A stretch of DNA of 64,000 bases from an uncultured Dehalococcoidales bacterium (GCA_964473905.1 CAYYQY010000002.1:7683-71682); one strand, 5' to 3'; shown: positions 1 to 60,690, counted from the stretch's first letter. Numbers and translations are program-made. Notes: generated by a model not told the origin, from the sequence alone.

Positions 1-753
1 ACACGTCTCGTGGTTATAAATCACGCGAGTAACGTGGCCGGTACCCTGCTGCCGGTTAGCGAGGTTTCGGCTATTGCCCGCAGAGCTAATGCCCTGCTGC
101 TGGTTGATGCGGCGCAAACAGCCGGCGTTATTCCTATAGACATGCAGGCTATGGGAATCGACCTTCTCGCCTTTACCGGGCACAAGGGGTTACAGGGCCC
201 GCCCGGCACCGGCGGTCTGGTGATAGGTAGCGGTGTTGATGTCTCTCGGATTGAGCCCCTGATGTACGGTGGTACGGGCAGCCAGTCCGAGCTGGAAGAG
301 CAGCCCCCCTTCCTTCCCGACAAGTTTGAAAGCGGGACGCCCAACATATCCGGCATCGCCGGTCTCCGTGCCGCCCTTGGCTGGCTTACGGACAGGGGTG
401 TTGAGAGCGTCCGTGCCCGGGAAAAGGAGCTTACCCGTGCCCTGATTGACGGTCTGTCCGGCTTACCGGGTGTCAGCGTTTACGGGCCGCTCGATCCTGA
501 AAGGTCGGTAGCCATAGTATCCATTACTATTAAAGGCAGGCAAAACTCAGAGGTCGGACTCAGGCTGGACGAGGAGCATGGTATTCTGTCCCGTGTCGGA
601 TTGCACTGTGCTCCCGCGGCTCATAAGACCATTGGCTCGTTCCCGGAGGGGACAGTACGGTTTGCCCCCGGTGTATTCACTACCATAGCCGATATTCATA
701 CAGTTATAAAAGCGGTCGGGGAGGTAATCCGCTCGTGGAAAGCTACGGGGTAA
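1..753 (+). CDS. Class V aminotransferase / cysteine desulfurase (SufS/CsdA-like), C-terminal part; the 5' end lies outside the window
   Basis: The frame is open from base 1 (TRLVVINHASNVAGT...). It has the PLP-lysine context FTGHKGLQGPPGTGGL and the active-site Cys context RVGLHCAPAAH, both typical of the cysteine desulfurase/selenocysteine lyase family. Confidence 0.85.
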   Translation, partial: TRLVVINHASNVAGTLLPVSEVSAIARRANALLLVDAAQTAGVIPIDMQAMGIDLLAFTGHKGLQGPPGTGGLVIGSGVDVSRIEPLMYGGTGSQSELEEQPPFLPDKFESGTPNISGIAGLRAALGWLTDRGVESVRAREKELTRALIDGLSGLPGVSVYGPLDPERSVAIVSITIKGRQNSEVGLRLDEEHGILSRVGLHCAPAAHKTIGSFPEGTVRFAPGVFTTIADIHTVIKAVGEVIRSWKATG

Positions 754-956
754 TCCTGTTTCATACAACGTCATCCGTCATGTGTGCTGAGAAAGCGCTG
801 GCCGGGGAAGGATGCGTGGTGAAGTTGATACCCACACCCCGTGAGTTCTCAAGCGATTGCGGTATCGCTCTGCGCTTCGATTGGGATGAATATGAAAAGG
901 TCACCTCGTTAGTGGCGGCGGCACAGCTGGAGATAAACGCTATTCACCGGATGTGA
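735..956 (+). CDS. DUF3343-like small protein (putative S/Se-carrier partner of the desulfurase)
   Basis: 73 aa with a GTG start overlapping the upstream gene by 19 nt. The block KLIPTPREFSSDCGIALRF matches my recollection of the DUF3343 signature, and the family is commonly adjacent to cysteine desulfurase genes. Confidence 0.65.
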   Translation: MESYGVILFHTTSSVMCAEKALAGEGCVVKLIPTPREFSSDCGIALRFDWDEYEKVTSLVAAAQLEINAIHRM

Positions 957-1112
957 CCTAACAGGTTTTAAAGCGGATAAAGGATATAAACCGCAAGCAG
1001 CAATATTGCCGGCTAATAAAGTAGGAAAACGCCATACTGTATGCCAACTGTCTCTGGGACGGGCCATTTTAAATATTTAATATCTCCGGTCTAATACCAG
1101 TGATCGGATACT

Positions 1113-3005
1113 CTATTTATGTACCAGTTCTTTGAGCGCTTTTTCTATGTCGGTTAAAACAGTGGCGTCGTCAATAGTGGATGGGACTTGATACTCTTGC
1201 CTGTCGGCAATCTTTCTCATAGTACTTCTAAGTATCTTGCCCGATCTGGTTTTGGGTAGTGACTTTACCACCACTATCTGCTTTAGAGACGCGATAGCGC
1301 CGATTTCCTCTCTTACCATGCTGATAAGGCTATCGATTATTACCTGATGCTCGGTTTTCACACCGGCCTTCAGTACCACCAGCGCCAGCGGTAGCTGGCC
1401 TTTAAAATCATCGGCAACACCGATAACGGCGCATTCCGCTACATCGGAATGCGTGGCTATGACCTCCTCCATGGCACCGGTTGACAGCCGGTGACCGGCC
1501 ACGTTAATGACATCGTCTACTCTGCCCATCACGAAGATATAGCCGTCACTGTCAATATGGCCGCCGTCGCTGGTAAAATAGTAGCCGGGGAACGGGGCCA
1601 GGTAGGACTCAACGAACTTATCATCGTCTTGCCACAGTGTGGTTAGCGTGCCGGGCGGCAGGGGCATCTTGATAGCTATAATACCTTCGGCATCCGGAGG
1701 TAAAATCTGGCCATTGTTATCCAGAATGGTCACCTGGTAGCCCGGGGCTGCCCTGGTTGGTGAGCCGGCTTTTATGGGGAGCAGCTCAATGCCTGTGCAG
1801 TTAGCCGCGATAGCCCAGCCGGTCTCCGTCTGCCACCAGTGGTCAATTACCGGGACGTGCAGCAGATCCTTTGCCCAGAAGTAGGTATCCGGGTCAAGCC
1901 TCTCACCGGCGAGGAATAGGTATTTAAGGCAGGAAACGTCGTATTTCTTCAGGTAGCTGCCGGCGGCGTCCTCTTTCTTAATAGCCCTGATGGCGGTAGG
2001 TGCCGTAAACAGTGCCCTGACGTTGTGCTGGGATATAACCCGCCAGAAAGCACCCGGGTCAGGTGTGCCCACCGGTTTGCCCTCGTATAGTACCGTAGTG
2101 CAGCCGTAAAGGAGAGGGGCATAAACGATATATGAGTGTCCGACAACCCAACCTACGTCAGACGCTGCCCAGAATACGTCGCCCGGATTCATCCCGTATA
2201 TATGTTTCATGCTCCATTTCATGGCGACAGCATGCCCGCCATTATCTCTGACCACGCCTTTGGGCTTGCCTGTTGTCCCTGAGGTGTAGAGAATGTAGAG
2301 AGGGTCTGTTGATTTAACGGGAGTACAGCCGGCAGGTTCGGCATCCTGTACTAAAGCGGCCCAGTCAAAATCACGTCCGTTTATCAAATTAGCCTGTGCC
2401 TGTTCTCTCTGGTAAATAATGCATTTTTCAGGCTTGTGACTTGCTATCTGGATGGCCTTATCCAGGAGCGGCTTGTATTTGATTACCTTCTTCCCCTCAA
2501 TACCGCACGAAGCAGAAAGGATCAGTTTAGGTCTGGCATCATCAATTCGGATAGCCAGTTCGTGCGGGGCGAACCCCCCGAAGACCACCGAATGTATTGC
2601 CCCAATGCGAGCACAGGCAAGCATGGCTGTCACCGCTTCGGGAATCATGGGCATGTATATTATCACCCGGTCTCCCCGGGATACTCCCTGTGTGGTGAGA
2701 GCTCCTGCCAGCTTTGATACCCTGTCCAGGAGCTCTTTATAGGTAATTTTCTGGCAGGTACCTGTAACCGGGCTATCGTAAATGATGGCTACCTGTTCGG
2801 CGCGCCCGTTTTCGACGTGATAGTCAACCGCGTTATAGCAAGTATTCAATTCTCCGTCCGGGAACCACCTGTAAAACGGCTTGTTTGTGTCGTCAAGAAC
2901 TGATGAGTATTTTTTATGCCATACTATTTCCTGGGCAGCCTTTCCCCAAAAATTATCAGGGTCGCTGATGGACTCCTCGTAGGTTTCCTGGTAGCTTCTA
3001 TCCAA
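1113..3005 (-). CDS. prpE: Short-chain acyl-CoA synthetase, AMP-forming (PrpE/ACSS3-like propionate--CoA ligase)
   Basis: AMP-binding motif YTSGTTGKPKG and the block IYMPMIPEAVTAMLACARIGAIHSVVFGGF. The N-terminus YQETYEESISDPDNFW aligns to PrpE. The ORF track starts at the ATG at 3026, which has no SD. The TTG at 3005 has AAGGAG (3012-3017) at 6-nt spacing, so 3005 is preferred. Confidence 0.85.
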   Translation of the reverse strand: MDRSYQETYEESISDPDNFWGKAAQEIVWHKKYSSVLDDTNKPFYRWFPDGELNTCYNAVDYHVENGRAEQVAIIYDSPVTGTCQKITYKELLDRVSKLAGALTTQGVSRGDRVIIYMPMIPEAVTAMLACARIGAIHSVVFGGFAPHELAIRIDDARPKLILSASCGIEGKKVIKYKPLLDKAIQIASHKPEKCIIYQREQAQANLINGRDFDWAALVQDAEPAGCTPVKSTDPLYILYTSGTTGKPKGVVRDNGGHAVAMKWSMKHIYGMNPGDVFWAASDVGWVVGHSYIVYAPLLYGCTTVLYEGKPVGTPDPGAFWRVISQHNVRALFTAPTAIRAIKKEDAAGSYLKKYDVSCLKYLFLAGERLDPDTYFWAKDLLHVPVIDHWWQTETGWAIAANCTGIELLPIKAGSPTRAAPGYQVTILDNNGQILPPDAEGIIAIKMPLPPGTLTTLWQDDDKFVESYLAPFPGYYFTSDGGHIDSDGYIFVMGRVDDVINVAGHRLSTGAMEEVIATHSDVAECAVIGVADDFKGQLPLALVVLKAGVKTEHQVIIDSLISMVREEIGAIASLKQIVVVKSLPKTRSGKILRSTMRKIADRQEYQVPSTIDDATVLTDIEKALKELVHK

Positions 3006-3487
3006 TTTACTCTCCTTTAAAATCATATCGTTATATTATTTTCCGATCTGTTGTGCGCGGGCGTACCTCCGCTCACTTGAGCCATACGCATGGAAATTGA
3101 AATCAGATAGCGCAGCGTCACGGTATGGGAACAACCTGGCGCTATCACGTAGAAGGAGGTAATAATATCATGGAGGTACGTGCTCTACCATCGAATATAC
3201 AGGATTATACTCCCAATTTATTAAAAGTAAAATACCTGTTAACATTTTTCCGCGAGTATATTCACCACATAAATCTCCTGGGTTACAGGAAAAAAGTAGG
3301 GGGGACTAATTGACGGGAAGATACTGCGCGGTTCCTCATAGCTCAGGCGGGCAGGGTGGCGGGACGGGTATGGCTCATTTCAGCCGCGCCGCACGGTGAT
3401 AGCGATACGGTAAATATAAACATAAATATTGCCGTATCCAAGGCTCGAAATCTACGGCGTATATTCTCCCCCTTTCTTGTAAGGCTA

Positions 3488-3517
3488 TTGACATGGTTTA
3501 GTCCTTATGTGTATAAT
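3488..3517 (+). promoter_or_regulatory. Sigma-70-type promoter, consensus -35 TTGACA and -10 TATAAT with an 18-nt spacer
   Basis: TTGACA at 3488-3493 and TATAAT at 3512-3517, about 55 nt upstream of the ferredoxin ATG at 3572. Confidence 0.6.
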
Positions 3518-3520
3518 GAT

Positions 3521-3542
3521 ATGCGGTAAATATTTACCGCAT
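3521..3542. promoter_or_regulatory. Perfect 22-bp palindrome ATGCGGTAAATATTTACCGCAT overlapping the predicted transcription start (candidate operator or 5' RNA hairpin)
   Basis: The sequence equals its own reverse complement and starts 4 nt after the -10 hexamer. Its 10-mer CGGTAAATAT recurs at 3408-3417 inside a second inverted repeat. Confidence 0.5.
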
Positions 3543-3571
3543 TATTTAGGTGAGGAATACTTATACCGCCG

Positions 3572-4048
3572 ATGAAACGTATATATGTCAATGAGCAGGT
3601 CTGTATCGGTTGCGGGCTGTGCCTGGTCTATTGCCAGGTCGAGCATTCGCCTTCAAAAGACGTGATTAAAGCCTTCAAGCAGGGAAGCACGCCGCCGTTA
3701 GCGTATGTTGCGGTGGAGTGCCGGGGGCCGGTTTCATTTGCCGTGCAATGCCGTCACTGTGAGGATGCCCCCTGTGTTTATGCCTGTCTCACCGGCGCCT
3801 TGCAGAAGGACCCGGATAGTGGCCTGGTGACGGTTGATACGAGCCGGTGTATCGGGTGCTGGACATGCATGTTGTTTTGTCCCTACGGTGCCGTAAGACA
3901 GGCACCGGATAGAAAGACCATCGCCAAATGTGACTATTGTGGTGACAGGGAAATACCGGCCTGTGTAGCCAACTGCCCGAATGAGGCGCTCGTTTATGCC
4001 GAGGCAGATGATACTGTCCTTGATTTCATGGGGGAAGGTCTGAAATGA
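3572..4048 (+). CDS. 4Fe-4S dicluster ferredoxin-like protein (electron-input module of an archaeal-type glutamate synthase cluster)
   Basis: Several CxxCxxCxxxC-type motifs (CIGCGLCLVYC, CRHCEDAPC, CIGCWTCMLFCP, CDYC...CVANCP). The stop overlaps the hisH start (ATGA at 4045-4048). Confidence 0.8.
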   Translation: MKRIYVNEQVCIGCGLCLVYCQVEHSPSKDVIKAFKQGSTPPLAYVAVECRGPVSFAVQCRHCEDAPCVYACLTGALQKDPDSGLVTVDTSRCIGCWTCMLFCPYGAVRQAPDRKTIAKCDYCGDREIPACVANCPNEALVYAEADDTVLDFMGEGLK

Positions 4049-4668
4049 TTGCCGTTATTGATTATGGTGCCGGCAACCTGCGTAGCGTGGTGAATGCGCT
4101 CACCCGCCTGGGCTATCCGTCCCGGGTAACGAGCCGCCCGGAGGAGATTCCTGAGGCGGCGGCAGTGATACTGCCGGGCGTTGGTGCCGCCGGTGATACC
4201 ATGAAGAACCTTAACGAAAAGGGGCTTGCTCAGGCGCTCCGTGACTATGTGGCGAGCGGTCGTCCTTTCTTCGGCGTTTGCCTGGGCTTGCAGGTCTTAT
4301 TTACCGCTACCGAGGAAGGTGGCTACCACGATTGTCTCGGCATAATTCCGGGTAAGGTGAAAAGACTGCCCCCGTGTCTTAAGGTTCCCCACATGGGGTG
4401 GAACCAGGTGAGGCAGCAATGCGAGCACCCTGTTTTTACGGGGATTAAGGATAATGCCTGCTTCTATTTCGTGCACAGCTACTATGCCGAGCCGGATGAT
4501 AGCGATGTTGCCGCCGGTATTACGGATTACGGGGTATCAATCTGTAGCGTGCTGATTAAAAATAACGTCATCGCTACCCAGTTTCACCCGGAAAAGAGCG
4601 GTGAGCCGGGGTTAAAAATGTACGATAATTTTCTTAAGCTGGCTGGAGTAACAGGCTCTCACGGCTGA
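4045..4668 (+). CDS. hisH: Imidazole glycerol phosphate synthase, glutamine amidotransferase subunit HisH
   Basis: N-terminus IAVIDYGAGNLRSV, nucleophile context FGVCLGLQ, HMGWN, and FHPEKSG (His/Glu of the class-I GATase triad). Confidence 0.9.
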   Translation: MIAVIDYGAGNLRSVVNALTRLGYPSRVTSRPEEIPEAAAVILPGVGAAGDTMKNLNEKGLAQALRDYVASGRPFFGVCLGLQVLFTATEEGGYHDCLGIIPGKVKRLPPCLKVPHMGWNQVRQQCEHPVFTGIKDNACFYFVHSYYAEPDDSDVAAGITDYGVSICSVLIKNNVIATQFHPEKSGEPGLKMYDNFLKLAGVTGSHG

Positions 4669-4687: not shown

Positions 4688-5770
4688 ATGAGCGTTGAGA
4701 AAGTAAAGTATCTGATTATAGGTAACTCGGCGGGCGGTATCGGCGCCGCGGAGGCGATACGCGAGGTGGACAGGGAATGCCCGCTGTCCATTGTTTCCGG
4801 CGAGCCGTACCCGGCCTACTCAAGACCGCGTATTGCCGATTACCTGGCAAAACGGTGTCCACTGGAGGGTATGCTGTTTCGGCCGACACGTTTCTATGCG
4901 GAAAATAACGTCAGGACTTACCTGGGGAAAAAGGTGGTCTCCTTATCACTTGAGACACATACCGCTAGACTTGCCGGCGGGGAAGAAATTGGCTGGGAGC
5001 AACTGTTGCTGGCTACCGGAGGTGTCGCTATAATTCCTCCGCTAGCGGGTATTGAGAAAAACGGTGTCTTCACCTTCACTACCCTGGATGATGCCGTATC
5101 CATTGACCGTTCTCTCCGGTCTGATAGCTCGGCGGCAGTTATCGGCGGCGGGCTTATCGGGCTGAGTGTAACGGAAGCCTTAATAAGACGCGGCATCAGG
5201 GTAACCATCGTAGAAAAAGAAGAGTGCCTACTCAGCGTCATGCTGGATGAGATAGCATCCTTACGTGAGGAGTCGGCTCTCCGGCAAGCCGGTGTGAACG
5301 TTATCACCGGCCACATGGTGACATCTATCAACGGGGATGCGGATAGGGTAAACAGTGTAACGTTGGATGACGCCAGTCTTATTCCGTCAGACCTGGTGAT
5401 AATCGCTGCCGGTGTCCGCTCGGCTATTGAGCTTGTTAACGGTACCGGCATAAAGGTAGGTCGTGGTATAACCGTTGACCGTCATATGCAGACCTCCTGG
5501 CCCGGAGTATATAGCTGCGGCGACGTGGCCGAGGCCTTTGACTTTATCACTAATGATACGGCAGTCACTCCCGTGTGGCCCAATGCGTATTTGGGCGGAC
5601 GGGTAGCCGGACTGAACATGGCCGGAGTGGCTACGGAGTATCCGGGTGGTACGCTGGTGAACTCTTTAAAATATTTCGGTGTGGATATCCTGAGCGCCGG
5701 CATAGTAAATCCGCCCGATAGCAGCTATGAGGTGCTATCGGGGGAGCACGGTGATTGCTTATGCCGTTGA
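4688..5770 (+). CDS. FAD/NAD(P)-dependent pyridine-nucleotide-disulfide-type oxidoreductase (NADH-oxidase-like), apparently missing its C-terminal dimerisation region
   Basis: Dinucleotide folds YLIIGNSAGGIGAAEA and AAVIGGGLIGLSVTEAL, plus the FAD motif YSCGDVAE. The frame ends at TGA soon after ...SSYEVLSGE, where homologues continue for several tens of residues. Confidence 0.75.
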   Translation: MSVEKVKYLIIGNSAGGIGAAEAIREVDRECPLSIVSGEPYPAYSRPRIADYLAKRCPLEGMLFRPTRFYAENNVRTYLGKKVVSLSLETHTARLAGGEEIGWEQLLLATGGVAIIPPLAGIEKNGVFTFTTLDDAVSIDRSLRSDSSAAVIGGGLIGLSVTEALIRRGIRVTIVEKEECLLSVMLDEIASLREESALRQAGVNVITGHMVTSINGDADRVNSVTLDDASLIPSDLVIIAAGVRSAIELVNGTGIKVGRGITVDRHMQTSWPGVYSCGDVAEAFDFITNDTAVTPVWPNAYLGGRVAGLNMAGVATEYPGGTLVNSLKYFGVDILSAGIVNPPDSSYEVLSGEHGDCLCR

Positions 5771-6164
5771 TCTGCTGATACGTAAACACAATCTGCCGGT
5801 AGAGGTGGCCGTCCGGGTTATAGCGCCACCTTTCTGGAGCGACATTGAAAGATGCCCCGCGGCAGAGCAGGAACTGCTCCGCAGCCTGCGTCAGGTGTAT
5901 GGCAGCCTGCTATTAAACGGGCCGTTTGCTATTATCATCGCTCACCAGGGCGAGATGATAGGGCTTACCGACCGCGTCCGGCTCCGCCCGCTTACCGTGG
6001 GCGAAAAAGGGGACATGGTTTATCTCTCCTCCGAGGAATCGGCCATACGGCTGGTCTGTCCCGACCTGGATAAAACGTGGATACCGATGGGCGGTGAACC
6101 GGTGATAGTGAAAGTTGGTGAGTCTCCGAGCCGAAAGCCGCGCTGTGCGGTGGGGGAGGCATAA
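5727..6164 (+). pseudogene. Headless fragment of a class-II glutamine amidotransferase (GltB1-like domain of glutamate synthase); the N-terminal Cys nucleophile region is absent
   Basis: The frame opens only at 5709, after a TAA at 5706-5708. The segment PVEVAVRVIAPPFW...LLLNGPFAIIIAHQGEMIGLTDRVRLRPLTVGEKGDMVYLSSEESAI matches the C-terminal third of the GltS amidotransferase domain (PWDGPAxxxF..G...GAxLDRNGLRP...V.ASE). Confidence 0.65.
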
Positions 6165-6165
6165 A

Positions 6166-6948
6166 ATGCTGACCAAGAGAATTATACCCTGTCTGGATTG
6201 CCAGAAGGGACGGGTGGTGAAGGGGACCAGTTTTACCAGTCTGCGCGACGCTGGAGACCCTGCTGAACGCGCTCGTTTTTACTACGAGGGGAGGGCGGAT
6301 GAGCTGGTACTTTTGGACATAACGGCTACGCCGGAGGCAAGAGATAACATGGTCGAGGTAGTTGAGTGTGTTTCGGACGAGATTTTTATACCGCTTACTG
6401 TCGGTGGTGGTCTGCGCAGTATCAAGGACATGAGGCGCATGCTGCTTGCCGGAGCGGACAAGGTCTCCATCAATACGGCAGCAGTGCAGAATACGTCTCT
6501 TATCACAGAGGGTGCCGATAAGCTGGGCAGCCAGTGTATTGTCGTTGCTATTGATGCCAAACGGGTAGCAGACAGTGACAAACCCCGCTGGGAGGTCTAT
6601 ACGCACAGCGGCCAGAGACCGACGGGTATGGACGCTGTCGCCTGGGCGAAACAGGTGGTGGTACTGGGGGCCGGGGAAATACTGCTCACCAGCATTGATG
6701 CTGACGGGCACCGGGCAGGTTACGATACGGGACTCTACCGGGCCGTTGCCGACACGGTAAGTGTGCCGGTTATTGCGAGCGGCGGTGCCGGTAACCTGGA
6801 AGACATGTATGAGGTGCTGAGTTACGGCCGGGCGGATGCCGTGCTGGCGGCCAGTATCTTTCACTACGGGATTCACTCTATCCGTGAGGCTAAAAAATAC
6901 CTGTCGGCAAAAGGTATGCCAGTACGTATGGAGGAGGAGGGGTTGTGA
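6166..6948 (+). CDS. hisF: Imidazole glycerol phosphate synthase, cyclase subunit HisF
   Basis: [44 protein letters not shown] and IASGGAG align end to end with HisF, and both catalytic Asp contexts are present. ATG at 6166 (the ORF track begins upstream at 6115). The stop overlaps the next start (GTGA at 6945-6948). Confidence 0.9.
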
Positions 6949-8450
6949 AGACATACATATCACCCAGGTTCCGTGTGGAACGGGACCCCGACCGCTGCAT
7001 ACAGTGCCAGGTGTGTGTTAACCAGTGCACCTTTGACACGCACCGCTATGACATTGAAAATGACGAAGTGGTTAGCCATGAAGAAAATTGCGTTGGCTGT
7101 CACCGCTGCGTTGTCTTTTGCCCGACGCGGGCACTCACTGTCAGCCGGAACCCGCTGGAGTACCGGCAGAACTATAACTGGCGCAGTGAGTATATAGAGG
7201 ATATATTAAAGCAGGCGGAAAGCGGCGGCATGCTTCTCACCGGGATGGGTAACGATAAGGGCTATCCCATCTACTGGGACCACCTGGTGCTTAATGCCAG
7301 CCAGGTAACCAATCCGTCTATTGACCCGCTGCGTGAGCCTATGGAGTTGATTACCTACCTGGGCCGCAAACCCGACCGTATAGAGATTGACAGTGACTCG
7401 CTCAGTCTGAAGACCAAAATGGCGCCGCAGGTCAAGCTGGAGGTGCCCATCATGTTTGCCGCCATGTCCTACGGAGCGGTGAGCATTAATGTGCACGAGT
7501 CTATGGCTAGGGCGGCCGCGGTCTCGGGCACGCTCTGGAATACCGGGGAGGGAGGCCTGCACTCCAAACTGTATAAATATGGGAATAATACCATCGTACA
7601 GGTTGCCTCGGGGCGGTTCGGTGTCAATCGGGAGTACCTTGACGCCGCCAGAGTAATTGAAATCAAGATAGGCCAGGGTGCCAAGCCCGGTATTGGCGGG
7701 CACCTGCCGGGAGAAAAGGTAAGCGCCGAGGTATCCTTAACGCGGATGATTCCGGAGGGGACGGATGCCCTGTCTCCGGCGCCGCAGCACGATATCTACT
7801 CCATTGAAGACCTGGCGCAGCTGATTTATGCCTTGAAAGAAGTAACGCAATATGCCAAGCCGGTATCGGTCAAGATAGCCGCCGTCCATAACTCGGCGGC
7901 TATTGCCAGCGGCATGGTGCGTGCCGGGGCGGATATTATTGTAATTGACGGGCTCAGAGGGGCTACCGGTGCCGCACCCAAGGTTATCCGCGATAATATC
8001 GGTATCCCTGTGGAGATGGCTCTCGCCTCGGTAGACACGCGCCTCAGGCAGGAGGGCATACGCAACCAGGCTTCTATCGTGGTCTCGGGAGGCATCAGAA
8101 ATAGCGGTGACGTGGCCAAGGCAATCGCCCTCGGCGCTGATGCGGTGTATATCGGGACGGCGGCTTTAATAGCGCTGGGTTGCCGTGTCTGTCAGCAGTG
8201 CCATACGGGTAAATGTGCCTGGGGTATCTGCACCACCGACCTGGCTTTAACCAGGAGGGTCAACCCGGATATCGGTGCCCGGAGGCTGTCCAATCTCCTG
8301 CGCGGTTGGAGTCTGGAGCTTAAAGAGATGCTGGGCGGTATGGGCACCAATGCCCTGGAAAGCCTGCGGGGTAACCGCCTGCACCTGAGGGGTGTCGGGC
8401 TCACCGACACGGAGCTTGACATTCTGGGAGTAAAGATGGCAGGAAGTTAA
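6945..8450 (+). CDS. Glutamate synthase FMN-binding subunit (archaeal-type GltB2) with an N-terminal 2x[4Fe-4S] ferredoxin domain
   Basis: [11 protein letters not shown] and [12 protein letters not shown] at the N-terminus, then [32 protein letters not shown] and the C-terminal [18 protein letters not shown]. Confidence 0.9.
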
Positions 8451-8452
8451 AA

Positions 8453-9214
8453 ATGACGATAGATATTGAAAGTAAGGTACCAATAATAGATGCCCGTGGC
8501 ATCCGCTACCGCGAACTGAATGCCATGATAAGAGATTGTGTTTCCGGCGGCTCGAGGCAAATAGAGCTCAGGAATGTCTGCGGGCAGCGATATATCGGCA
8601 CCAGCCTTAATAAACCGGTTGAGATTAACATTACAGGTATACCGGGCAATGACCTGGGGGCATTTATGGACGGGCCGAGGATTACTGTCCGCGGGAATGC
8701 TCAGGACGGCTGCGGCAATACCATGAACGAAGGGGAGATTATTATTCACGGGCATGCCGGAGACATAGTCGGGCTTTCCGCCCGGGGCGGTAAAATCTTT
8801 GTCCGTGATGACGTCGGTTACAGGGCCGGTATTCATATGAAGCAGTATCAGGATAAGAGGCCGGTGCTGGTCGTCGGCGGCACTGCCCAGGACTTCCCCG
8901 GCGAATACATGGCGGGGGGTATTCTGATATTGCTGGGTCTGAACCTGGGAGAAGCAGAGTCGCACCGGGCTAATTTTGTCGGTACCGGGATGCACGGTGG
9001 GGTTATCTACCTGAGAGGCCACATTGATGATTTCCGGCTCGGTAAGGAGATAGGTATGGCTGAACTAAATGACAGCGATTACCGCGTTTTGGAGACATAT
9101 ATTGGTGAGTTTGCCGGGTATTTTGGATATAATACCGGGGACATTTTAAACCATAAATTTACGCGGCTGTCCCCTCTCTGGCTGCGGCCTTACGGCAGGA
9201 TATATACTTATTAA
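8453..9214 (+). CDS. Glutamate synthase GXGXG-repeat subunit (archaeal-type GltB3)
   Basis: Repeated glycine-rich beta-helix blocks ITGIPGNDLGAFMDGPRITVRGNAQDGCGNTMNEGEIIIHGHAGDIVG...GGKIFVRDDVGYRAG. The start lies 2 nt after the gltB2 stop. Confidence 0.88.
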   Translation: MTIDIESKVPIIDARGIRYRELNAMIRDCVSGGSRQIELRNVCGQRYIGTSLNKPVEINITGIPGNDLGAFMDGPRITVRGNAQDGCGNTMNEGEIIIHGHAGDIVGLSARGGKIFVRDDVGYRAGIHMKQYQDKRPVLVVGGTAQDFPGEYMAGGILILLGLNLGEAESHRANFVGTGMHGGVIYLRGHIDDFRLGKEIGMAELNDSDYRVLETYIGEFAGYFGYNTGDILNHKFTRLSPLWLRPYGRIYTY

Positions 9215-9297
9215 GGGCAAAGGTGGATAATTATATAAACAAGAGCCAGCGGTCAAGACGACAATGAAATTTGGGAAAAGTTAAAAGGAGGCTCAAC

Positions 9298-10680
9298 ATG
9301 CCGGATAAACATGTATCGCAAGAATTTGGGGGAGATGAGGAAAGCACCACACTGTTACGCAAAAGGGAAGCCGTACTCCAGAAGGCAAAGGAGCATAATG
9401 TAAAGTTCATCAGGCTGTGGTTTACCGACATACTGGGGTTCCTCAAGAGCTTTACCATAACCGTTGAAGAACTGGCAGGGGCCATGGAGGAAGGCATGGG
9501 CTTTGACGGCTCTTCAATCCAGGGGTTCGCCCGTATTGATGAAAGCGACATGGTGGCGTTGCCTGATCCCGATACTTTCCGGGTATTGTCGTGGCGACCC
9601 CGGGAGAATAGTGCCGTAGCCCGGATGTTCTGTGATGTGCTGAAGCCCGGCGGTGAGATCTTCGAAGGTGACCCCAGGTATGTACTCAAGAAGAATCTAA
9701 AGCGGGCAGCGGACATGGGTTACACGTTCTATGTCGGGCCGGAGTTGGAATATTTCTACCTGCGTGATGACAAAGGTACCGAGCTTCTGGACCAGGGTGG
9801 CTACTTTGATATGACGCCGCGGGATGCCGCTACCGACCTGAGGAAAGAGACCGTGCTTACTCTGGAGGATCTGGGTATTGGCATTGAGTACTCGCACCAT
9901 GAGGTCGCTCCCAGCCAGCATGAGATAGACATGCGGTATACGGATGCTTTAACCATGGCCGACAACGTGATGACCTACCGTCTGGTGGTTAAAGACGTAG
10001 CGCTACAAAACGGGGTCTATGCCACATTCATGCCCAAGCCGGTATTCGGCATTAACGGCAACGGCATGCATGTTCACCAGTCGCTGTTTAAGGGTGAGCG
10101 CAACGTTTTCTTTGACAAAAATGATAAGTACCACCTGTCCGGGATAGCCAGGAGCTATATAGCCGGCCTATTAGAACACGCACCGGAAATCACGGCGGTC
10201 ACCAACCAGTGGGTCAACTCCTATAAACGGCTGGTTCCCGGCTACGAGGCGCCGGTTTATGTATCCTGGGCCCGGCGTAACCGCTCCGACCTGGTCCGGG
10301 TGCCGGAGTACCGGCCGGGGAGAGAAAAATCAACCAGGATTGAATTCAGGTCACCAGACCCGGCCTGTAACCCTTACCTGGCTTTCAGCGTCATGCTGGC
10401 CGCCGGGCTGGAAGGTATTGAGGGAGAATACAAAATTCCGGAGCCGATAGAAGAAAACATTTACGAGATGAGCGAAGAGGAGAGGCAAAAAAGAGGTATT
10501 AATACACTGCCGCCCGATCTACTGGAAGCTATACGTCTTGCCGAGAACAGTAAGCTGGTGCGAAAGGCTCTCGGCGAGCATGTTTTCCATGCCTTTATTG
10601 CCAATAAGAAAATTGAGTGGCATCAGTACCGGTCTCAGGTAACAGAATACGAGATTAAGAAATACTTGCCCATTCTGTAA
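9298..10680 (+). CDS. glnA: Glutamine synthetase, type I
   Basis: FDGSSIQGF, NGNGMHVHQSLF, SWARRNRSDLVRVP and RIEFRSPDPACNPYLA. ATG at 9298 follows AAAGGAGG (9284-9291). The ORF track begins upstream at 9271. Confidence 0.92.
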   Translation: MPDKHVSQEFGGDEESTTLLRKREAVLQKAKEHNVKFIRLWFTDILGFLKSFTITVEELAGAMEEGMGFDGSSIQGFARIDESDMVALPDPDTFRVLSWRPRENSAVARMFCDVLKPGGEIFEGDPRYVLKKNLKRAADMGYTFYVGPELEYFYLRDDKGTELLDQGGYFDMTPRDAATDLRKETVLTLEDLGIGIEYSHHEVAPSQHEIDMRYTDALTMADNVMTYRLVVKDVALQNGVYATFMPKPVFGINGNGMHVHQSLFKGERNVFFDKNDKYHLSGIARSYIAGLLEHAPEITAVTNQWVNSYKRLVPGYEAPVYVSWARRNRSDLVRVPEYRPGREKSTRIEFRSPDPACNPYLAFSVMLAAGLEGIEGEYKIPEPIEENIYEMSEEERQKRGINTLPPDLLEAIRLAENSKLVRKALGEHVFHAFIANKKIEWHQYRSQVTEYEIKKYLPIL

Positions 10681-10858: not shown

Positions 10859-13800
10859 ATGCGTCAAGGGGGAAGTCCTGAAGTAGAGAAAAAGGTAATC
10901 ACCATTCTTAAAGTTCTAAGTGAGTCCTCGGAATCGCTGGGCTCAATCACGATAGCCAGAGAGCTCAGGCGTTACGGCGTATTCTTAACGGAGCGGGCGG
11001 TGAGGTATCATCTCAAGATAATGGATGAGAGGGGATATACCTACTCTCTGGGCCGCGATGGTAGAATACTGACGCCAAAAGGTATGGATGAGCTGGCTAT
11101 AGCTCTCGCCCCGCAACAGGTAGGCTTTATTCTAAATAAGCTTGAACTGCTGGCTTTCTACACCACTTTTAACCCGGAGACAAAGACCGGCAATGTGCCT
11201 ATCAATACCTCTCTCATAGATAAAGACCAGTTCGGCGATACGCTGGCAGCCATGGCGGACGCCTTTAAGGCGGGTATATGCGTGAGTGACTTGGTAGCTA
11301 TGGCCACCGAAGGTGACAAGCTGGGCTCGGTGGTCATCCCTACCGGCAAGATAGGTCTGGCTACCGTGTGCAGTGTCGTTATAAATGGTGTGTTACTGAA
11401 ATCGGGTATCCCGGTAGATTCCAGGTTCGGCGGACTGCTGGAAGTCATAGATTCCAAACCGCAGCGCTTTGTGACCGCCATAAATTACAACGGTACTTCC
11501 GTTGACCCCTCCGAGCAGTGCATTCTTTCCGGTATGACCAGTGTGCAAAAAGTAGTTGAAACCGGCAGCGGTAAGCTGCTCGCCAATTTCCGCGAAATAA
11601 TAGCCCCGTCGCGGTCAGCCGTTGAAGAAATAATAGCCTCACTTAAAAAGGCGGGTATCGGCGGTGTGTATGTTTTGGGTAATACCAGTGAGGTCACCTG
11701 CAAAATCCCGGTAGAGCTTAACAAGGTCGGTATGGTCCTCTTGGGCGGATTAAACCCGGTGGCGGCTGCCATTGAGCAGGGGTTTAAAATTGAGAACGCA
11801 AGCGAGAGCGGGACGATTGATTATCAGCGTCTTAAAAAATTCTCACAGCTTGACGGGGTGCCGAAGCAGGCGGTGATGGCTAGTAGAAGGCAGCTTGGTC
11901 CCGGTTATCAGGAGACTACTAAACACGAGCCGCATAAACTTGGCAGCGGTTCACCTGAGCTTGACGAGCTTTTACAGGGGTTTCAAGACGGTGACAACAT
12001 CGTATGGCAGATAGATAGTCTGAGCGACTACACCCATTTTGCGGAGCTATTTGCCGACCAGGCTACCCGGGAGGGGCGTGAGTGCCTCTATTTCCGGTTT
12101 GCGCTGCACCAGGCTATTCTCAAGCCCCGTGCCGGAGTAACTATCGTAGAAATTGAACCGTCACCCGGATTTAATTTTTTCAGCGAAAAAGTGAGCAGCA
12201 TCATCGAGGAACGGGGCAGTAATGTTTATTATGTTTTTGATAATCTGTCAGCGCTGGTAGCCAGCTGGGCTACCGACGAGCTTCTGTCCGACTTCTTCCG
12301 GGTAACCTGTCCGCATATACTGGAAGCAGGCGCGGTAGCCTACTTCGCGCTAACCCGCGGGCAGCACGCCCACACCGCTATCGCTCGGATACGGGATACT
12401 ACCCAGATACTGATCGACATCTACCATATGCAGGGTGCCATGTACCTGCATCCCCTGAAGGTATGGGGGCGCTACTCGGCCCAGATGTTCCTGCCGCACC
12501 TTATCTCAGAGGCAGGATGGTCGCCGGTCTTCCAAAGTGGCGAAGCAGCCAGAATATCTTCATCCATGTATAAACAGCCGCTCAGTGTCGCCGTGCCCTC
12601 TATTGCTCCTTGGGAAAGTGTATATGCCAAGCTTATGCAGTTTCGCCAGGCGCGGGGAAAGCTGGATGAGAGCGACCCGGAAATAAAATCTCTCAAGCAT
12701 GAGCTTACCCGGATGATTATCGGCGAACACAGGTCATTTAACCGGCTCGCCAGTAAGTACTTCACCGTGGATGACCTCATTGAAATCAGGAACCGCATCA
12801 TCGGCACCGGTCACATCGGCGGTAAGGCCGCCGGTATGTTGCTCGCCAGGCGTATCCTGTTGACGGAAAAGGGTGAGGTGGACTATTCACAGGTTCTTGA
12901 GCCTCACGATTCGTTCTATATCGGCTCGGACGTGTTTTTTACCTTTCTGGTTAATAACGACCTGTTTCAGCTTGGCCTGCAGGTCAATAAGGACTGGCAA
13001 ATCTCAGCGGAGGAGTTTGAAAAAATCGAGCAGCTTTTCCTGAATGGGGAATTCACTCCGGAGATAGTCGGGCAGTTTCGGGATATGCTGGACTATTTTG
13101 GCCAGGCACCTATTATCGCCAGGTCCAGCAGCTTGATGGAAGATAGCCTGGGCAATGCCTTCGCCGGTAAGTATATGAGCATTTTTTGCCCTAACCAGGG
13201 TGACCCCGAAGAGCGTCTCGAGGAGTTCCTGCATGCCGTCAAGCTCATTTACGCCAGTGTGCTTAACCCGGATGCCGTCTCTTACCGGGTGAAACAGGGG
13301 CTTTATGAAAGTGACGAGCAGATGGCTATACTGGTGCAGCGTGTATCCGGGACAGCATACAAGCACTATTTCTTTCCACCTCTTGCCGGCGTAGCTTTTT
13401 CCAAGAATTTATACCGGTGGGCTGACCGTATTGACCCGCAGAAGGGGATAATCAGGCTTGTCTTCGGCCTGGGAACCCGGGCGGTTAACCGTGTTGGTGG
13501 TGACTATCCCCGGATGATAGCCATATCTCACCCGCAGCTCCGTCCGGAGTACGGTGCCCGGATAGCCAAGTACTCGCAGCACAATATGGATTTGCTTGAC
13601 CTGAAATCAAACATGTTCACCTCCAGACTGGTTACGGATGTGCTTGGCGATTACGATTATCCTAACCTGCGCCTTATCGCATCGCAGATGGAGGATGGTT
13701 ATACCCACGATGTCACCAGCATTTCCCCTGAGGCATCAGCTACGTATCTCCTTCTGACATTTAACAACCTTACTGAAAAGACACCGTTTGTTAAAATCAT

Positions 13801-14542
13801 GGGTGATATGCTTACCAGATTGGAAGAGGCCTATGGCTATCCCATAGATTCCGAGTTTACGGCTCACGTGAGACCCGATGGTGAGGTGAGGGTTAATCTA
13901 TTGCAGTGCCGCTCACTCAGGTTGCCCGGCACGTCACTATCTGTTGAAATACCGGAAAACATACCTGCCGAGCGGACATTATTCACGTCCAAGCGCTTCA
14001 TAAGCGGGGGCATGGTACAAAACATACGCTACATCCTGTATATAGACCCGGTCAAGTATGCTGCAACAGCGCCGGAGGCCAAAAAAACGCTGGGTAGAGT
14101 GGTGGGGCGTGTCAACAAGCACCCGTCTATTATTGAGGGCAAGATAATGATGATGGGGCCGGGCAGATGGGGTAGCAGCAACACCGAACTGGGGGTAAAT
14201 GTCGGCTATGCGGACATTGATAATACCTCCGTTCTGGTAGAGATTGCCCGTGAGGAGACAGGGCATATCCCGGAGGTGTCCTACGGTACTCGTTTCTTTC
14301 AGGATCTGGTTGAGGCAAATATCATGTATTTGCCCGTTTACCCCGGCGACCCGGATACTGCCTTTAATGCGGCGTTCTTTGACTCCTCACCCAACATAAT
14401 CGGCGAACTCCTGCCCGAGACAGCCGGGTTTGACGGTGTGGTACAATTAATTGACGTTCCAGCCGTAACCGGCGGGCAATACGCGCAAATTATAGCCGAG
14501 CTGCAAAATCAGAGGGCGATTTGTTTTACCGGCCCTGAGTAG
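10859..14542 (+). CDS. Fusion protein: NrpR-type nitrogen regulator (wHTH + DUF128) - KaiC/RecA-like domain lacking a P-loop - PPDK_N (PEP/pyruvate-binding ATP-grasp) domain
   Basis: aa 1-335: ITILKVLSES..ERAVRYHLKIMDERGY..GKIGLATVCSVVINGVLLKSGIPVDSRFGGLLEV..NYNGTSVDPSE (NrpR pattern). aa ~355-560: SPELDELLQGFQDGDNIVWQIDS... (KaiC-like, no GKT). aa ~640-end: IGGKAAGMLLARR, IIARSSSLMEDS, FAGKY, MAILVQRVSG (PPDK_N). The frame is a single uninterrupted ORF with a GGAGGGA SD before the ATG. Confidence 0.75.
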   Translation: MRQGGSPEVEKKVITILKVLSESSESLGSITIARELRRYGVFLTERAVRYHLKIMDERGYTYSLGRDGRILTPKGMDELAIALAPQQVGFILNKLELLAFYTTFNPETKTGNVPINTSLIDKDQFGDTLAAMADAFKAGICVSDLVAMATEGDKLGSVVIPTGKIGLATVCSVVINGVLLKSGIPVDSRFGGLLEVIDSKPQRFVTAINYNGTSVDPSEQCILSGMTSVQKVVETGSGKLLANFREIIAPSRSAVEEIIASLKKAGIGGVYVLGNTSEVTCKIPVELNKVGMVLLGGLNPVAAAIEQGFKIENASESGTIDYQRLKKFSQLDGVPKQAVMASRRQLGPGYQETTKHEPHKLGSGSPELDELLQGFQDGDNIVWQIDSLSDYTHFAELFADQATREGRECLYFRFALHQAILKPRAGVTIVEIEPSPGFNFFSEKVSSIIEERGSNVYYVFDNLSALVASWATDELLSDFFRVTCPHILEAGAVAYFALTRGQHAHTAIARIRDTTQILIDIYHMQGAMYLHPLKVWGRYSAQMFLPHLISEAGWSPVFQSGEAARISSSMYKQPLSVAVPSIAPWESVYAKLMQFRQARGKLDESDPEIKSLKHELTRMIIGEHRSFNRLASKYFTVDDLIEIRNRIIGTGHIGGKAAGMLLARRILLTEKGEVDYSQVLEPHDSFYIGSDVFFTFLVNNDLFQLGLQVNKDWQISAEEFEKIEQLFLNGEFTPEIVGQFRDMLDYFGQAPIIARSSSLMEDSLGNAFAGKYMSIFCPNQGDPEERLEEFLHAVKLIYASVLNPDAVSYRVKQGLYESDEQMAILVQRVSGTAYKHYFFPPLAGVAFSKNLYRWADRIDPQKGIIRLVFGLGTRAVNRVGGDYPRMIAISHPQLRPEYGARIAKYSQHNMDLLDLKSNMFTSRLVTDVLGDYDYPNLRLIASQMEDGYTHDVTSISPEASATYLLLTFNNLTEKTPFVKIMGDMLTRLEEAYGYPIDSEFTAHVRPDGEVRVNLLQCRSLRLPGTSLSVEIPENIPAERTLFTSKRFISGGMVQNIRYILYIDPVKYAATAPEAKKTLGRVVGRVNKHPSIIEGKIMMMGPGRWGSSNTELGVNVGYADIDNTSVLVEIAREETGHIPEVSYGTRFFQDLVEANIMYLPVYPGDPDTAFNAAFFDSSPNIIGELLPETAGFDGVVQLIDVPAVTGGQYAQIIAELQNQRAICFTGPE

Positions 14543-18662: not shown

Positions 18663-19802
18663 ATGGAGGCTATGGACAGATTGTCTTCTCATCTGAAGAC
18701 AAGGTTGGGCGATTTGCGTAAGGTAAAAAAGGAGGGGCGCAAGATTATCGGATATCCGCCGGGGGGTTATCTACCCGAGGAGTTGGTACTGGCGTCCGGG
18801 GCCATACCGATATGCCTGATACGAGGGGGCGACCATGCTCCCGTTGAACTTTCCGGAGCTTATATTTGCCGCTGGATAGATACTTTCTACCGGGCACAGA
18901 TTGGCTACGGGATTTCCGGGGACGATCCGTACTACAACGTTATTGATCTTCTGGCCGTAGCCATGACGGATAATCACGTCCGTGCCCTGGAAGACGTTCT
19001 TGATTATAACACCGATATTGAGGTATTTACCTTTGGTGTACCTCATATGAAAGAAGATAGCACGTTCAAGTATTATTTACATGGTATAAACACTCTTAAA
19101 GCAAAACTCGAGGAGTTTACCGGGGTAGAGATTACGGATTCGAAACTTAAAGAAACCATCGCTTTGTGTAACCGGGAAAGGGAGCTTTTAAAGGAGATTA
19201 GCTTGCTGCGGAAGAGTGTTCCGGCACCTATCAGCGAGAAAGACTATGTGGCACTGCATCACGGTTCCCTGCTGGCCGACAAGGTGTTTATGGTTGAGAT
19301 TTTAGAATCTGTTCTGGATGAGCTAAAGCAGCGGCCGGTACCGGCGAGCGAAGGTCCCAGGATCCTGTTAACCGGCTCAACGTTAGCTATGGGGGACTAT
19401 AGAGTTCTTGATTCGGTAGAGGACGCCGGCGGCAGCATTGTCATTGAAGAGTTTGCCGAGGGCATCAGACCCTACTGGCATAATGTAAGTCCGGACGGAG
19501 ATTTAATGTCTGCCCTGGCTGACTGCTATTTTATGCAGCGAGTGCCGCCTGCCTGGTTCCGGCCGGGGAAAGAAAGGCTTGATTTTGTCATCAAACTGGC
19601 TAAAGACTTCAACGTGTCCGGGGTTATCTGGTACCAGCTTATGTACCGCGAATCTTATAAGACGGAGTCGTACTACTTCCCGGATAGGCTCAAGAAAGAG
19701 ACCGGTTTACCTATGCTCACGCTGGAATCAGACTATGACCAGTCCGAGACAGAGCAGATGCGGACACGGGTTGAGACCTTTGTGGAGACTATAAGGAGAT
19801 AG
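18663..19802 (+). CDS. 2-hydroxyacyl-CoA dehydratase / benzoyl-CoA reductase family subunit (HgdB/BcrC-like)
   Basis: 379 aa. IIGYPPGGYLPEELVLASGAIPICL near the N-terminus and the C-terminal LESDYDQSETEQMRTRVETFVETI signature of the BcrC/BadD/HgdB family. Confidence 0.75.
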   Translation: MEAMDRLSSHLKTRLGDLRKVKKEGRKIIGYPPGGYLPEELVLASGAIPICLIRGGDHAPVELSGAYICRWIDTFYRAQIGYGISGDDPYYNVIDLLAVAMTDNHVRALEDVLDYNTDIEVFTFGVPHMKEDSTFKYYLHGINTLKAKLEEFTGVEITDSKLKETIALCNRERELLKEISLLRKSVPAPISEKDYVALHHGSLLADKVFMVEILESVLDELKQRPVPASEGPRILLTGSTLAMGDYRVLDSVEDAGGSIVIEEFAEGIRPYWHNVSPDGDLMSALADCYFMQRVPPAWFRPGKERLDFVIKLAKDFNVSGVIWYQLMYRESYKTESYYFPDRLKKETGLPMLTLESDYDQSETEQMRTRVETFVETIRR

Positions 19803-19804
19803 AT

Positions 19805-21214
19805 ATGGCAAACTATTATGACGAGCTACTCAGACTTTGCGGGTTTGAGGACGAAGAAATTATAGAAGAGAAACCTAGAATTGACAGTGCCTTTGCCAGG
19901 CTGGAACTGGGTCCTGAAGATATTAAGACAGCTGAGCAATGGGTGCGGCAGAACCATGATATTGAGCTCAGGGGCGTACGTAAACTGCTCCGGGCATGGC
20001 TGCTGGAGCTTATTGATATGGTGCTGGCCAAGGACGAGGGTAAGTTGATAGTCTATTACGGCTTTCCCAGTATTCCCGGTCCGGGTATGGCTACAAAGGT
20101 AGCGGCCATGGATGCGGGCATAGATCTCTATATTGCCTGCCCCGATGTGGTGCTGTGTCACACTATGGGCCAAATATTTAATAAACTTAATCCTTTACTG
20201 GAGGCGGGTGAGCAGGGCGGGCTGCCACCGGGGCACGGCCTGTGCTCGCTGCAACAGATAAGAAACGGTGGCATGGCCAAAGGGGTAATCCCGGTACCGG
20301 ACCTGGTTACCGGTTCCAGCTATTTCTGCGACATGGGTTCCAAGGCGGATGAACTGCTTCACGAAAAATACGGTCACCCGGCAATATATGTTGATGGCTC
20401 TATGGATTCCAGGTGGGGTGAGTACCCCGATTACCTGCCTGAGAGGGTAGAGTTTCTGGGCGCACAGATTAATAAGCTCTTTGCTGCCGTCAAAGAAGTC
20501 CTCGGAGTAGAGGTGACTAATGAGGCCTGGGACAAAGCCATGTCCATTAGCCGTGAGCTCTTTAAGGCTCAGGGCCGCCTTACCCGCTTGATGACGGCTG
20601 ACCCGCAGCCACTCAGCGCCGTGGCACTGGGGCTGGCGTTACAGCTGACTACCGGCTCTACCGGCAGGGCTATTTCAGAAGGGCCCGAGGCAGTCTCTAT
20701 CCTGTGCGACGAGGTTGAAAAGAGAGTTGAGCAGGGCATCGGCGTTGTGGAAAAAGGAGCACCGCGAGTGCTGAATTTCATTGCCCCGTTTTCCGACCCC
20801 AGCATAATGCGTATGATGGAAGATGCCGGTCTGGCTATGTCGGTAACCCTGTTGAGTGTTCCCGGTAAGAAGTATCCGCCCAGCAGCTACACCACACTGG
20901 GTGAAATACGGGCCGAGAGAGAGATGAGAGACGGTCATTACCACGGCGGTTTCGGTCTGGCCAAACGGTTTGAAGAAGCTGCCCGTGATCTGGATGTGGA
21001 CGGGGTCATGTGGGGTTACCTGTTCAATTGCCGGCCGCTGGCTGAGACTTCGCATACCGTCAAGAAATGGGTAGAGGAGACTACCGGCATACCTACCATA
21101 GCTCTGGAAATGGATGCATACGACAGCCGTAACTACAGTGCGGCTGCATTGAGAACCAGGGTAGAAGCCTTTGCCGAGATGCTGAGAGCTAGAAAGGCGG
21201 CTGCCGGTGAATGA
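19805..21214 (+). CDS. 2-hydroxyacyl-CoA dehydratase / benzoyl-CoA reductase family subunit (HgdA/BcrB-like), paralogue 1
   Basis: 469 aa with the C-terminal ALEMDAYDSRNYSAAALRTRVEAFAEML family signature and conserved Cys contexts (LCSLQQ, YFCDMGSK, LFNCRP). AAGGAGA SD. Confidence 0.7.
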   Translation: MANYYDELLRLCGFEDEEIIEEKPRIDSAFARLELGPEDIKTAEQWVRQNHDIELRGVRKLLRAWLLELIDMVLAKDEGKLIVYYGFPSIPGPGMATKVAAMDAGIDLYIACPDVVLCHTMGQIFNKLNPLLEAGEQGGLPPGHGLCSLQQIRNGGMAKGVIPVPDLVTGSSYFCDMGSKADELLHEKYGHPAIYVDGSMDSRWGEYPDYLPERVEFLGAQINKLFAAVKEVLGVEVTNEAWDKAMSISRELFKAQGRLTRLMTADPQPLSAVALGLALQLTTGSTGRAISEGPEAVSILCDEVEKRVEQGIGVVEKGAPRVLNFIAPFSDPSIMRMMEDAGLAMSVTLLSVPGKKYPPSSYTTLGEIRAEREMRDGHYHGGFGLAKRFEEAARDLDVDGVMWGYLFNCRPLAETSHTVKKWVEETTGIPTIALEMDAYDSRNYSAAALRTRVEAFAEMLRARKAAAGE

Positions 21215-21368
21215 AAGAATAAAACTGGAGTATAAGAATTATAGATAGTAGCGGCACCGCTGTGGTTGCTGCTGACCGCAAAGCATCAGTGGACTTTGGT
21301 ATCAGCCATTCTGTTGCAGGTCATACGAAACGGGGTCTTGCAACTTTATGATTGTAAGGAGTTGAGAC

Positions 21369-59757: not shown

Positions 59758-59807
59758 GGCTAAGTCTCTGTCTCTTCTCTGTCAGCTGTTATAAATCCTT
59801 GCTGCCC

Positions 59808-60650: not shown

Positions 60651-60690
60651 TTAAAAAAACTCTCCGCTGTCTTTTCTATATAGTAAGTTG

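Follow-up and report, generated by a model that had tools for sequence, protein, structure and literature searches.

The Glutamate Synthase Operon

The locus described here belongs to a stretch of 64,000 nucleotides (nt), or 64 kb, of DNA from an uncultured Dehalococcoidales bacterium (GCA_964473905.1, CAYYQY010000002.1:7683-71682), referred to below as the window, whose own numbering is used for all coordinates. It harbours a split ('archaeal-type') glutamate synthase (GOGAT) operon, all genes of which are located on the + strand and follow each other in a tight series consisting of a ferredoxin gene, hisH, the gene of an NAD(P)H/flavin adenine dinucleotide (FAD) flavoprotein, gltB1, hisF, gltB2, gltB3 and then glnA. 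Among 80 species-level loci from Dehalococcoidia, all the informative ones share this gene order, with genes of full length. In the window, the flavoprotein gene and gltB1 are truncated and abut each other, very probably because one deletion event removed about 1.0 kb of the genome, joining these two genes of the operon, and became fixed in the population that was sampled.

Junction between the Flavoprotein Gene and gltB1

Full-length reference proteins from the locus L006 were compared by tblastn with the window and with 80 species-level genome loci (L007-L086). In the window, the match to residues 8-356 of the 448 residues of the flavoprotein (4706-5740) is directly followed by the match to residues 240-368 of the 371 residues of GltB1 (5745-6131), an abutment encountered only in the window and its identical metagenome copies. 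Every locus covering the region possesses the flavoprotein up to residue ~425-448 and, within a few tens of nucleotides, residues 1-364 or more of GltB1, the full-length pair of the relatives consisting of a flavoprotein of ~420-450 amino acids (aa) followed by a GltB1 of ~370 aa. The DNA comprised between the aligned points measures ~10 nt in the window, compared with a median of 1,025 nt in 65 intact loci, and the length of the missing segment ranges from 944 to 1,058 nt in 62 of these 65 loci and reaches 1.6-1.7 kb in the other three, which contain an extra insert. The initial annotation of this DNA had proposed a deletion of about 0.8-1 kb joining two adjacent genes, an interpretation that is supported.

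The deletion junction is located at 5747-5753 (+ strand), where the homology to the flavoprotein extends to 5752, the C-terminal segment of the L014 flavoprotein aligning to 5666-5752, and the homology to GltB1 starts from 5750/5751, leaving room for a microhomology of 0-3 nt (GGT). A strong hairpin, with 13-nt arms, a 3-nt loop and a minimum free energy of -20.4 kcal/mol, occurs in the coding sequence of the flavoprotein (5714-5742, + strand) and ends 5-10 nt before the breakpoint. This hairpin is specific to the lineage, the homologous stretch in 65 relatives folding at -4.7 kcal/mol on average and at -11.3 kcal/mol at the lowest. Deletion end-points adjoining quasi-palindromes are a known pattern and, speculatively, the hairpin at the left breakpoint, together with a microhomology of 3 nt at most, might point to illegitimate recombination or slippage.

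Two other arrangements of the missing sequence have been considered and rejected. A programmed frameshift fusing the two remnants would need a +1 shift, is devoid of any conserved signal and corresponds to an arrangement that occurs in no relative. With respect to a relocation of the missing pieces, neither the window nor the 5.3 kb preceding it (L001) yielded a copy at E <= 1, and a second GltB1 similarly does not occur in these 64 kb and 5.3 kb.

Truncated Flavoprotein

The flavoprotein gene (4688-5770, + strand) encodes a truncated PadH/AorC-like NAD(P)H/FAD oxidoreductase of 360 aa, which matches Pyr_redox_2 (PF07992) at 1.4e-48. Its FAD- and NAD(P)-binding Rossmann domains are complete, PF07992 covering residues 7-288 and PF00070 residues 149-227. 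The complete C-terminal domain, a PF18267-like domain that contacts the partner protein, is absent, and the Pfam match to Rubredoxin_C is restricted to positions 2-27 of the 70 positions of the profile, with a sub-threshold score. Alignments to PadH (E = 1e-75) and to AorC (PDB code 8c0z_E; E = 1e-43) cover positions 2-343 of 416 and 2-329 of 424, respectively. Relative to the 448-aa L006 reference, of which residues 8-356 are matched by tblastn, ~92 residues are missing from a protein that comprises 420-453 aa in the relatives; among the 120 best homologues, 117 measure 424-453 aa and possess PF18267 at their C-terminus.

The open reading frame (ORF) ends with ...SSYEVLSGEHGDCLCR, followed by the TGA at 5768-5770. 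Coordinates and frame of this stop are those given by the initial annotation, and the homologues do continue past it, as had been claimed. Homology to the relatives persists up to ~5752, and the alignments run through ...PPDSSYEVLSGEHG. The 3' end of the gene (GAT TGC TTA TGC CGT, then TGA, read as DCLCR-stop) consists of gltB1 DNA read out of frame over 6 codons. The bases used for DCLCR-stop double, in the other frame, as codons for the conserved VIAYAVD stretch of GltB1 and thus offer direct evidence of the scar.

GltB1 Remnant

The frame of the GltB1 remnant is open from 5709, after the TAA at 5706-5708, to 6164 and contains an ATG at 5727, while homology begins with VIAYAVDLL at position 5751. 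Counted from the GTG at 5751, the remnant comprises 137 codons (5751-6164, + strand), homologous to residues ~240-371 of the N-terminal nucleophile (Ntn) amidotransferase subunit, and the 137-aa product is reported by gene callers. It matches proteins from Dehalococcoidia and Chloroflexota annotated as 'glutamate synthase domain-containing protein 1', with E values down to 1e-62 and 65-82% identity, and its domain matches are limited to positions 74-121 of GATase_7 and 154-202 of PurF. The conserved motifs LRQVYG..LNGPF, GLTDR.RLRPL and YLSSEE are retained. As a whole, 132 homologous residues are left and 239 are missing when compared with the full-length reference. A second frame opening at 5709 after the TAA, reading as the last ~140 residues of a GltS-type amidotransferase domain and lacking more than 200 N-terminal residues including Cys1, had been recognized at the outset, and these results bear it out.

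In the full-length relatives, the nucleophilic Cys occurs in 'DACSIFG' at about residue 21, behind a propeptide. This residue is absent from the window, since the remnant starts at residue 240 and the TAA at 5706-5708 blocks its frame on the upstream side. According to the alignment of the L007 GltB1 to GlmS of Escherichia coli (PDB code 1xff), the residues R73, N98-G99 and D123 correspond to HGRF, VHNGE and QTDTE. The Arg of HGRF, the Asn-Gly oxyanion hole of VHNGE and the Asp of TDTE all lie upstream of the remnant in the alignment to 1xff and to GltA of Bacillus subtilis (PDB code 7mfm), and the Cys nucleophile occupies a position ~220 residues further upstream. Cys, Arg, Asn-Gly and Asp constitute the established catalytic set of GlmS and PurF. 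With all of them lost, the remnant is devoid of any catalytic residue and cannot hydrolyse glutamine.

Recovery of the Junction from Independent Assemblies

The exact 71-nt string spanning the junction (5720-5790) occurs in 8 further contigs, all of them at least 99.9% identical to the window. Five are MEGAHIT contigs from ENA (ERZ27315447, ERZ27315541, ERZ27315768, ERZ27315822 and ERZ27316109), one comes from JGI (3300025628) and two belong to the Logan assemblies of SRR7528417 and SRR5458846. Contigs of these three pipelines encode products identical to the 360-aa and 137-aa proteins of the window. A junction shared by ENA, JGI and Logan contigs makes an assembly collapse, the error that the initial annotation had named as a possible source of the scar, extremely unlikely. 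Among 5.8 billion protein clusters, no near-identical intact allele was found, the next-best homologues reaching 80% identity for GltB1 and 64% for the flavoprotein. Scanning the JGI metagenome contigs with exact 29-mers for an intact allele of the same species returned nothing, and a protein-guided scan returned one 100%-identical contig, which ends before the junction. Independent recovery from 8 contigs and 3 pipelines, on the one hand, and full-length orthologues in 65 intact loci, on the other hand, speak for a genuine deletion, which is very probably real and, as far as sampled, fixed.

Other Genes of the Operon and Neighbouring Genes

A promoter-like site, made of TTGACA, a spacer of 18 nt and TATAAT (3488-3517, + strand), is located 55 nt upstream of the first gene. 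Its 12/12 matches to the sigma-70-type consensus and its position suggest a putative promoter of the operon. The first gene (3572-4048, + strand) encodes an intact multi-cluster 4Fe-4S ferredoxin of the DmsB/HydN/PadI type (Pfam Fer4_11, 2.7e-18), for which the NCBIfam matches to DmsB, HydN and PadI are partial and which occupies the same position in the relatives. It is followed by hisH (4045-4668, + strand), encoding the class-I glutaminase subunit of imidazole glycerol phosphate synthase, which is intact (TIGR01855, 224 bits for a cut-off of 105) and shows no departure at any of the 70 columns conserved to 95% or more.

Downstream of the scar, hisF (6166-6948, + strand), encoding the cyclase subunit of the same enzyme, is likewise intact (TIGR00735, 353 bits for a cut-off of 294.55), and its ribosome-binding site sits within the final codons of the gltB1 remnant. 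The protein aligns to HisF of Thermotoga maritima with E = 7e-77, and the Asp residues of 'CLD' and 'AIDAKR' are present in the alignment to HisF-LUCA and T. maritima HisF. Of 113 columns with a conservation of 95% or more, 9 carry a non-consensus residue in the HisF of the window, for instance V12C, G43R and F49L, a maximum among 51 taxa (median 1); the catalytic Asp residues are kept. The two following genes are gltB2 (6945-8450, + strand), which encodes the 2x[4Fe-4S] and flavin mononucleotide (FMN)/synthase domain (PF01645, 460 bits), and gltB3 (8453-9214, + strand), which encodes the GXGXG β-helix domain of glutamate synthase (PF01493, 6.3e-33). GltB2 displays 80% identity to the reference over residues 1-500 and 3 departures at 321 conserved columns, a normal count. 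The glutamine synthetase gene glnA (9271-10680, + strand; Gln-synt_C, 9.8e-132) is the downstream neighbour.

Directly downstream of glnA, a protein of 1,227 aa (10859-14542, + strand) consists of an NrpR-type nitrogen repressor module (HTH_12 and NRD1_2) fused to PPDK_N, a phosphoenolpyruvate-utilising, ATP-binding domain, a combination unusual in a bacterium for a regulator presumed to sense 2-oxoglutarate. Farther away, the window contains three tandem genes of the HGD-D family, resembling 2-hydroxyacyl-CoA dehydratase or benzoyl-CoA reductase (18663-22781, + strand), and a HerA-NurA pair (DUF87/HAS-barrel and NurA; 57530-61893, - strand).

The hisH/hisF Module and Other Decayed Operons

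The two his genes occupy separate positions in the operon (fdx-hisH-flavo-gltB1-hisF-gltB2-gltB3), that of hisF being the position of the 'central domain' in the fused GltS α subunits. Among 54 fully covered loci of Dehalococcoidia, 34 contain both hisH and hisF, 19 contain neither and a single one contains hisF only, so that both genes are acquired or lost as a pair despite their separate locations. A literature search covering this type of operon and the presence of hisH/hisF in it found nothing relevant.

An independently decayed GOGAT operon occurs in L088 (positions 1-3912; ENA ERZ27245602, k141_125326). There, gltB1 is frameshifted at about residue 222, gltB3 is also frameshifted, and gltB2 contains several nonsense codons and frameshifts and shows 62% identity to the reference, compared with 78-85% in the others. 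Since hisF, inserted between these decayed GOGAT genes, is intact, as is the downstream regulator, loss of the operon recurs in the clade and hisF is independent of GOGAT. In L070, an operon form without hisF, an 18-codon hisF stub (MLTKRVIPCLDVRNGRVV), 89% identical to the reference, persists between gltB1 and gltB2 (6369-6538). As the second scar of a deletion within this operon family, the stub shows that the hisF-less form can arise by loss. Taken together, the matches to equivalog models, the intact hisF of L088 and the stub of L070 point to HisH and HisF as genuine subunits of imidazole glycerol phosphate synthase that function independently of GOGAT. HisH is therefore unlikely to take over from the lost glutaminase.

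In six loci without hisH (L070, L056, L040, L079, L024 and L065), a conserved ORF of ~130 aa occurs between the ferredoxin and flavoprotein genes, with the motif M.Y.WGPHY.VPSEV.K.YSG.V.LREE...NPWYYRKK...TW.KIGES. A 122-aa ORF without a Pfam hit is located between fdx and hisH in L091.

Origin of the Scar

The proposed deletion would have removed, in a single event, the last ~92 codons of the flavoprotein, corresponding to its C-terminal domain, an intergenic spacer of ~27 nt and the first ~239 codons of gltB1. The propeptide lies in this portion of gltB1, as do the Cys nucleophile, the Arg that binds the substrate, the Asn-Gly oxyanion hole and the Asp of TDTE. What is left behind consists of a flavoprotein ORF ending in 6 out-of-frame gltB1 codons and a stop, and of a gltB1 remnant that could be translated at best from a fortuitous GTG, as a 137-aa fragment. 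Both remnants are quite probably dead.

That the junction would result from an assembly collapse or chimera, the true genome containing both genes intact, is an explanation favoured by the metagenomic nature of the data and by the occurrence of similar artefacts in related records, namely the 100-N scaffold gaps with duplicated flanks of L006 and L089. It is extremely unlikely, however, in view of the identical junction found in the window and in 8 contigs of MEGAHIT, JGI and Logan origin, no repeat spanning the junction or shared between the two genes being found and no Ns occurring at the junction, and of the lack of any intact allele above the 80% (GltB1) and 64% (flavoprotein) identity reported above. 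Just as improbable is the idea that the two ORFs represent natural isoforms, i.e., legitimately short flavoproteins and stand-alone C-terminal GltB1 proteins. Many GltB1 hits in the databases comprise only 130-260 aa, which was at first suggestive of a natural short family, those of 130-175 aa matching the C-terminus of GltB1 only, and two flavoprotein homologues of 354-360 aa are listed. Dozens of GltB1 entries, of 140-175 aa and ~244 aa, start at an internal Met ('MQTDTEV...', 'MEINT...'). All the short entries inspected, including the ~148-aa 'MQTDTEV' entries of GltB1 and a 354-aa flavoprotein, nevertheless turned out to be artefacts or pseudogenes. They are interrupted by the scaffold gaps of L006 and L089, begin 20 nt from a contig edge (L090), belong to frameshift-ridden long-read contigs (L005, L053 and L091) or correspond to a true pseudogene (L088). 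Once its gap is bridged, the L006 GltB1 comprises 371 aa, with the propeptide followed by the nucleophilic Cys in 'DACSIFG'. The remaining short entries are probably artefacts as well, and they could mislead judgements on the GltB1 family that are based on length. Moreover, the informative genome loci covering the region are all full length, none of them containing a homologue that naturally ends or starts at this place, as the initial annotation had considered, and the final residues of the window flavoprotein are encoded by out-of-frame gltB1 DNA.

A different view of the same deletion is that the operon has become a working new architecture, in which GltB2 and GltB3 make glutamate without an Ntn glutaminase, from free ammonia or from ammonia delivered by the HisH-HisF of the operon and with another reductant, the C-terminal fragment of GltB1 being kept for structural reasons. 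This is unlikely, although several observations speak in its favour and weigh at the same time against the two remnants being dead. Both gltB2 and gltB3 look fully intact, and hisH, like them, shows no excess decay. Neither remnant contains internal stops or frameshifts, 61 of the 62 columns with a conservation of 95% or more are unchanged in the GltB1 remnant (two junction residues excluded), and its relative-rate statistic of 0.577 equals that of gltB2 (0.576), a conservation that would also be expected from purifying selection acting on a still useful fragment. A GGGGGAG at 5740-5746, 4 nt before the GTG at 5751, provides a plausible Shine-Dalgarno sequence and start and could permit the translation of the 137-aa fragment. 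The population occurs in at least nine samples, so the deletion is tolerated. Bearing on the main reading alone, the nearest sampled relative is at least 13% diverged in GltB2 and the time elapsed since the deletion is therefore poorly resolved. A recent event, however, explains the lack of decay equally well. In addition, what remains of GltB1 is one half, the C-terminal one, of an interleaved Ntn sandwich fold and, as suggested by the GlmS alignment, is unlikely to fold alone, and the flavoprotein responsible for electron input is crippled too. HisH and HisF, which are missing from 19 of 54 intact operons and the second of which survives in L088, behave as an independent module. The glutaminase and synthase sites of GltS are, furthermore, normally tightly coupled through an ammonia tunnel (PMC8097209).

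Other measures reveal no clear additional decay of either remnant. Ranked by the ratio of remnant to GltB2 distances, the window occupies the 8th place of 62 for GltB1 and the 19th of 52 for the flavoprotein, and Tajima-type counts of 0.54-0.64 for every gene indicate that the whole lineage forms a longish branch. The flavoprotein remnant shows 8 departures at conserved columns, a joint highest count (median 2), which is not specific since the presumably functional hisF shows 9. Nine contigs are 99.9-100% identical to the window, with 4 single-nucleotide polymorphisms, none of them in a remnant. These data fit a recent deletion, the alternatives being that the decay test is too coarse or that the fragments have been retained.

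Functional Consequences

If the remnants are non-functional, the operon is unable to perform a glutamine-dependent, NAD(P)H-driven synthesis of glutamate, and loss of its glutamine-dependent GOGAT activity is the most likely outcome of the deletion. The initial annotation had predicted a GOGAT without its cognate glutaminase and without part of its putative NAD(P)H input subunit, which coincides with what the sequence suggests, the catalytic part of GltB1 and the C-terminal domain of the flavoprotein having been deleted. HisH and HisF presumably keep working in histidine synthesis, and the intactness of gltB2 and gltB3 would be accounted for by the recent date of the event or by some residual use. 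It is quite improbable that a natural glutaminase-less glutamate synthase is at work here, with a GltB2-GltB3 core used on free or HisH/HisF-derived ammonia and another electron donor; what little probability it retains comes from gltB2, gltB3, hisH and hisF being intact and from the persistence of the deleted genotype across many samples.

In the only GOGAT operon visible here, glutamate synthesis could accordingly no longer be coupled to the hydrolysis of glutamine and the oxidation of NAD(P)H, and nitrogen assimilation must then rest on glutamate dehydrogenase, a second GOGAT or external amino acids. Together with the decay observed in L088, the deletion fits a pattern of metabolic streamlining and dependency in Dehalococcoidia. 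In annotations, the labels 'FAD-dependent oxidoreductase' and 'hypothetical protein' should give way to that of pseudogene fragment for the two ORFs.

Comparison with Known Systems

Separate ORFs for the individual domains of GltS are known from Archaea (PMC8097209). With respect to such split glutamate synthases, made of GltB1 (COG0067), GltB2 (COG0069) and GltB3 (COG0070), the window contains intact GltB2 and GltB3 in the vicinity of glnA and a recognisable GltB1-type sequence, but the latter lacks residues 1-239 and the three proteins are thus not all intact. The operon of this clade further differs from the split glutamate synthases by a PadH/AorC-like flavoprotein and a ferredoxin, instead of a GltD-type β subunit, and by the interleaving of hisH and hisF in about two thirds of the loci. 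The class-II Ntn amidotransferase domain of PurF, GlmS and GltS is represented in the remnant by its C-terminal half, deprived of Cys1, Arg, Asn-Gly and Asp. Similarly, in comparison with PadH, AorC (8c0z_E) and the putidaredoxin/rubredoxin reductases, which are NAD(P)H:ferredoxin-type FAD oxidoreductases made of three domains, the flavoprotein of the window exhibits complete FAD/NAD Rossmann domains and a C-terminal domain that is cut; like PadH, which is associated with PadI in phenylglyoxylate dehydrogenase, it is paired with a multi-cluster ferredoxin.

In kind, the scar does not differ from the pseudogenes generated by deletion in bacterial genomes that are losing genes, with which it shares the truncation of two genes in one event, breakpoints located in coding sequence, a short or absent microhomology and intact orthologues in the relatives, the strong lineage-specific hairpin beside the breakpoint being the only unusual detail. 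In this respect, the pair of pseudogene fragments created by the deletion is a known kind of event in a new place, that is, an ordinary gene loss.

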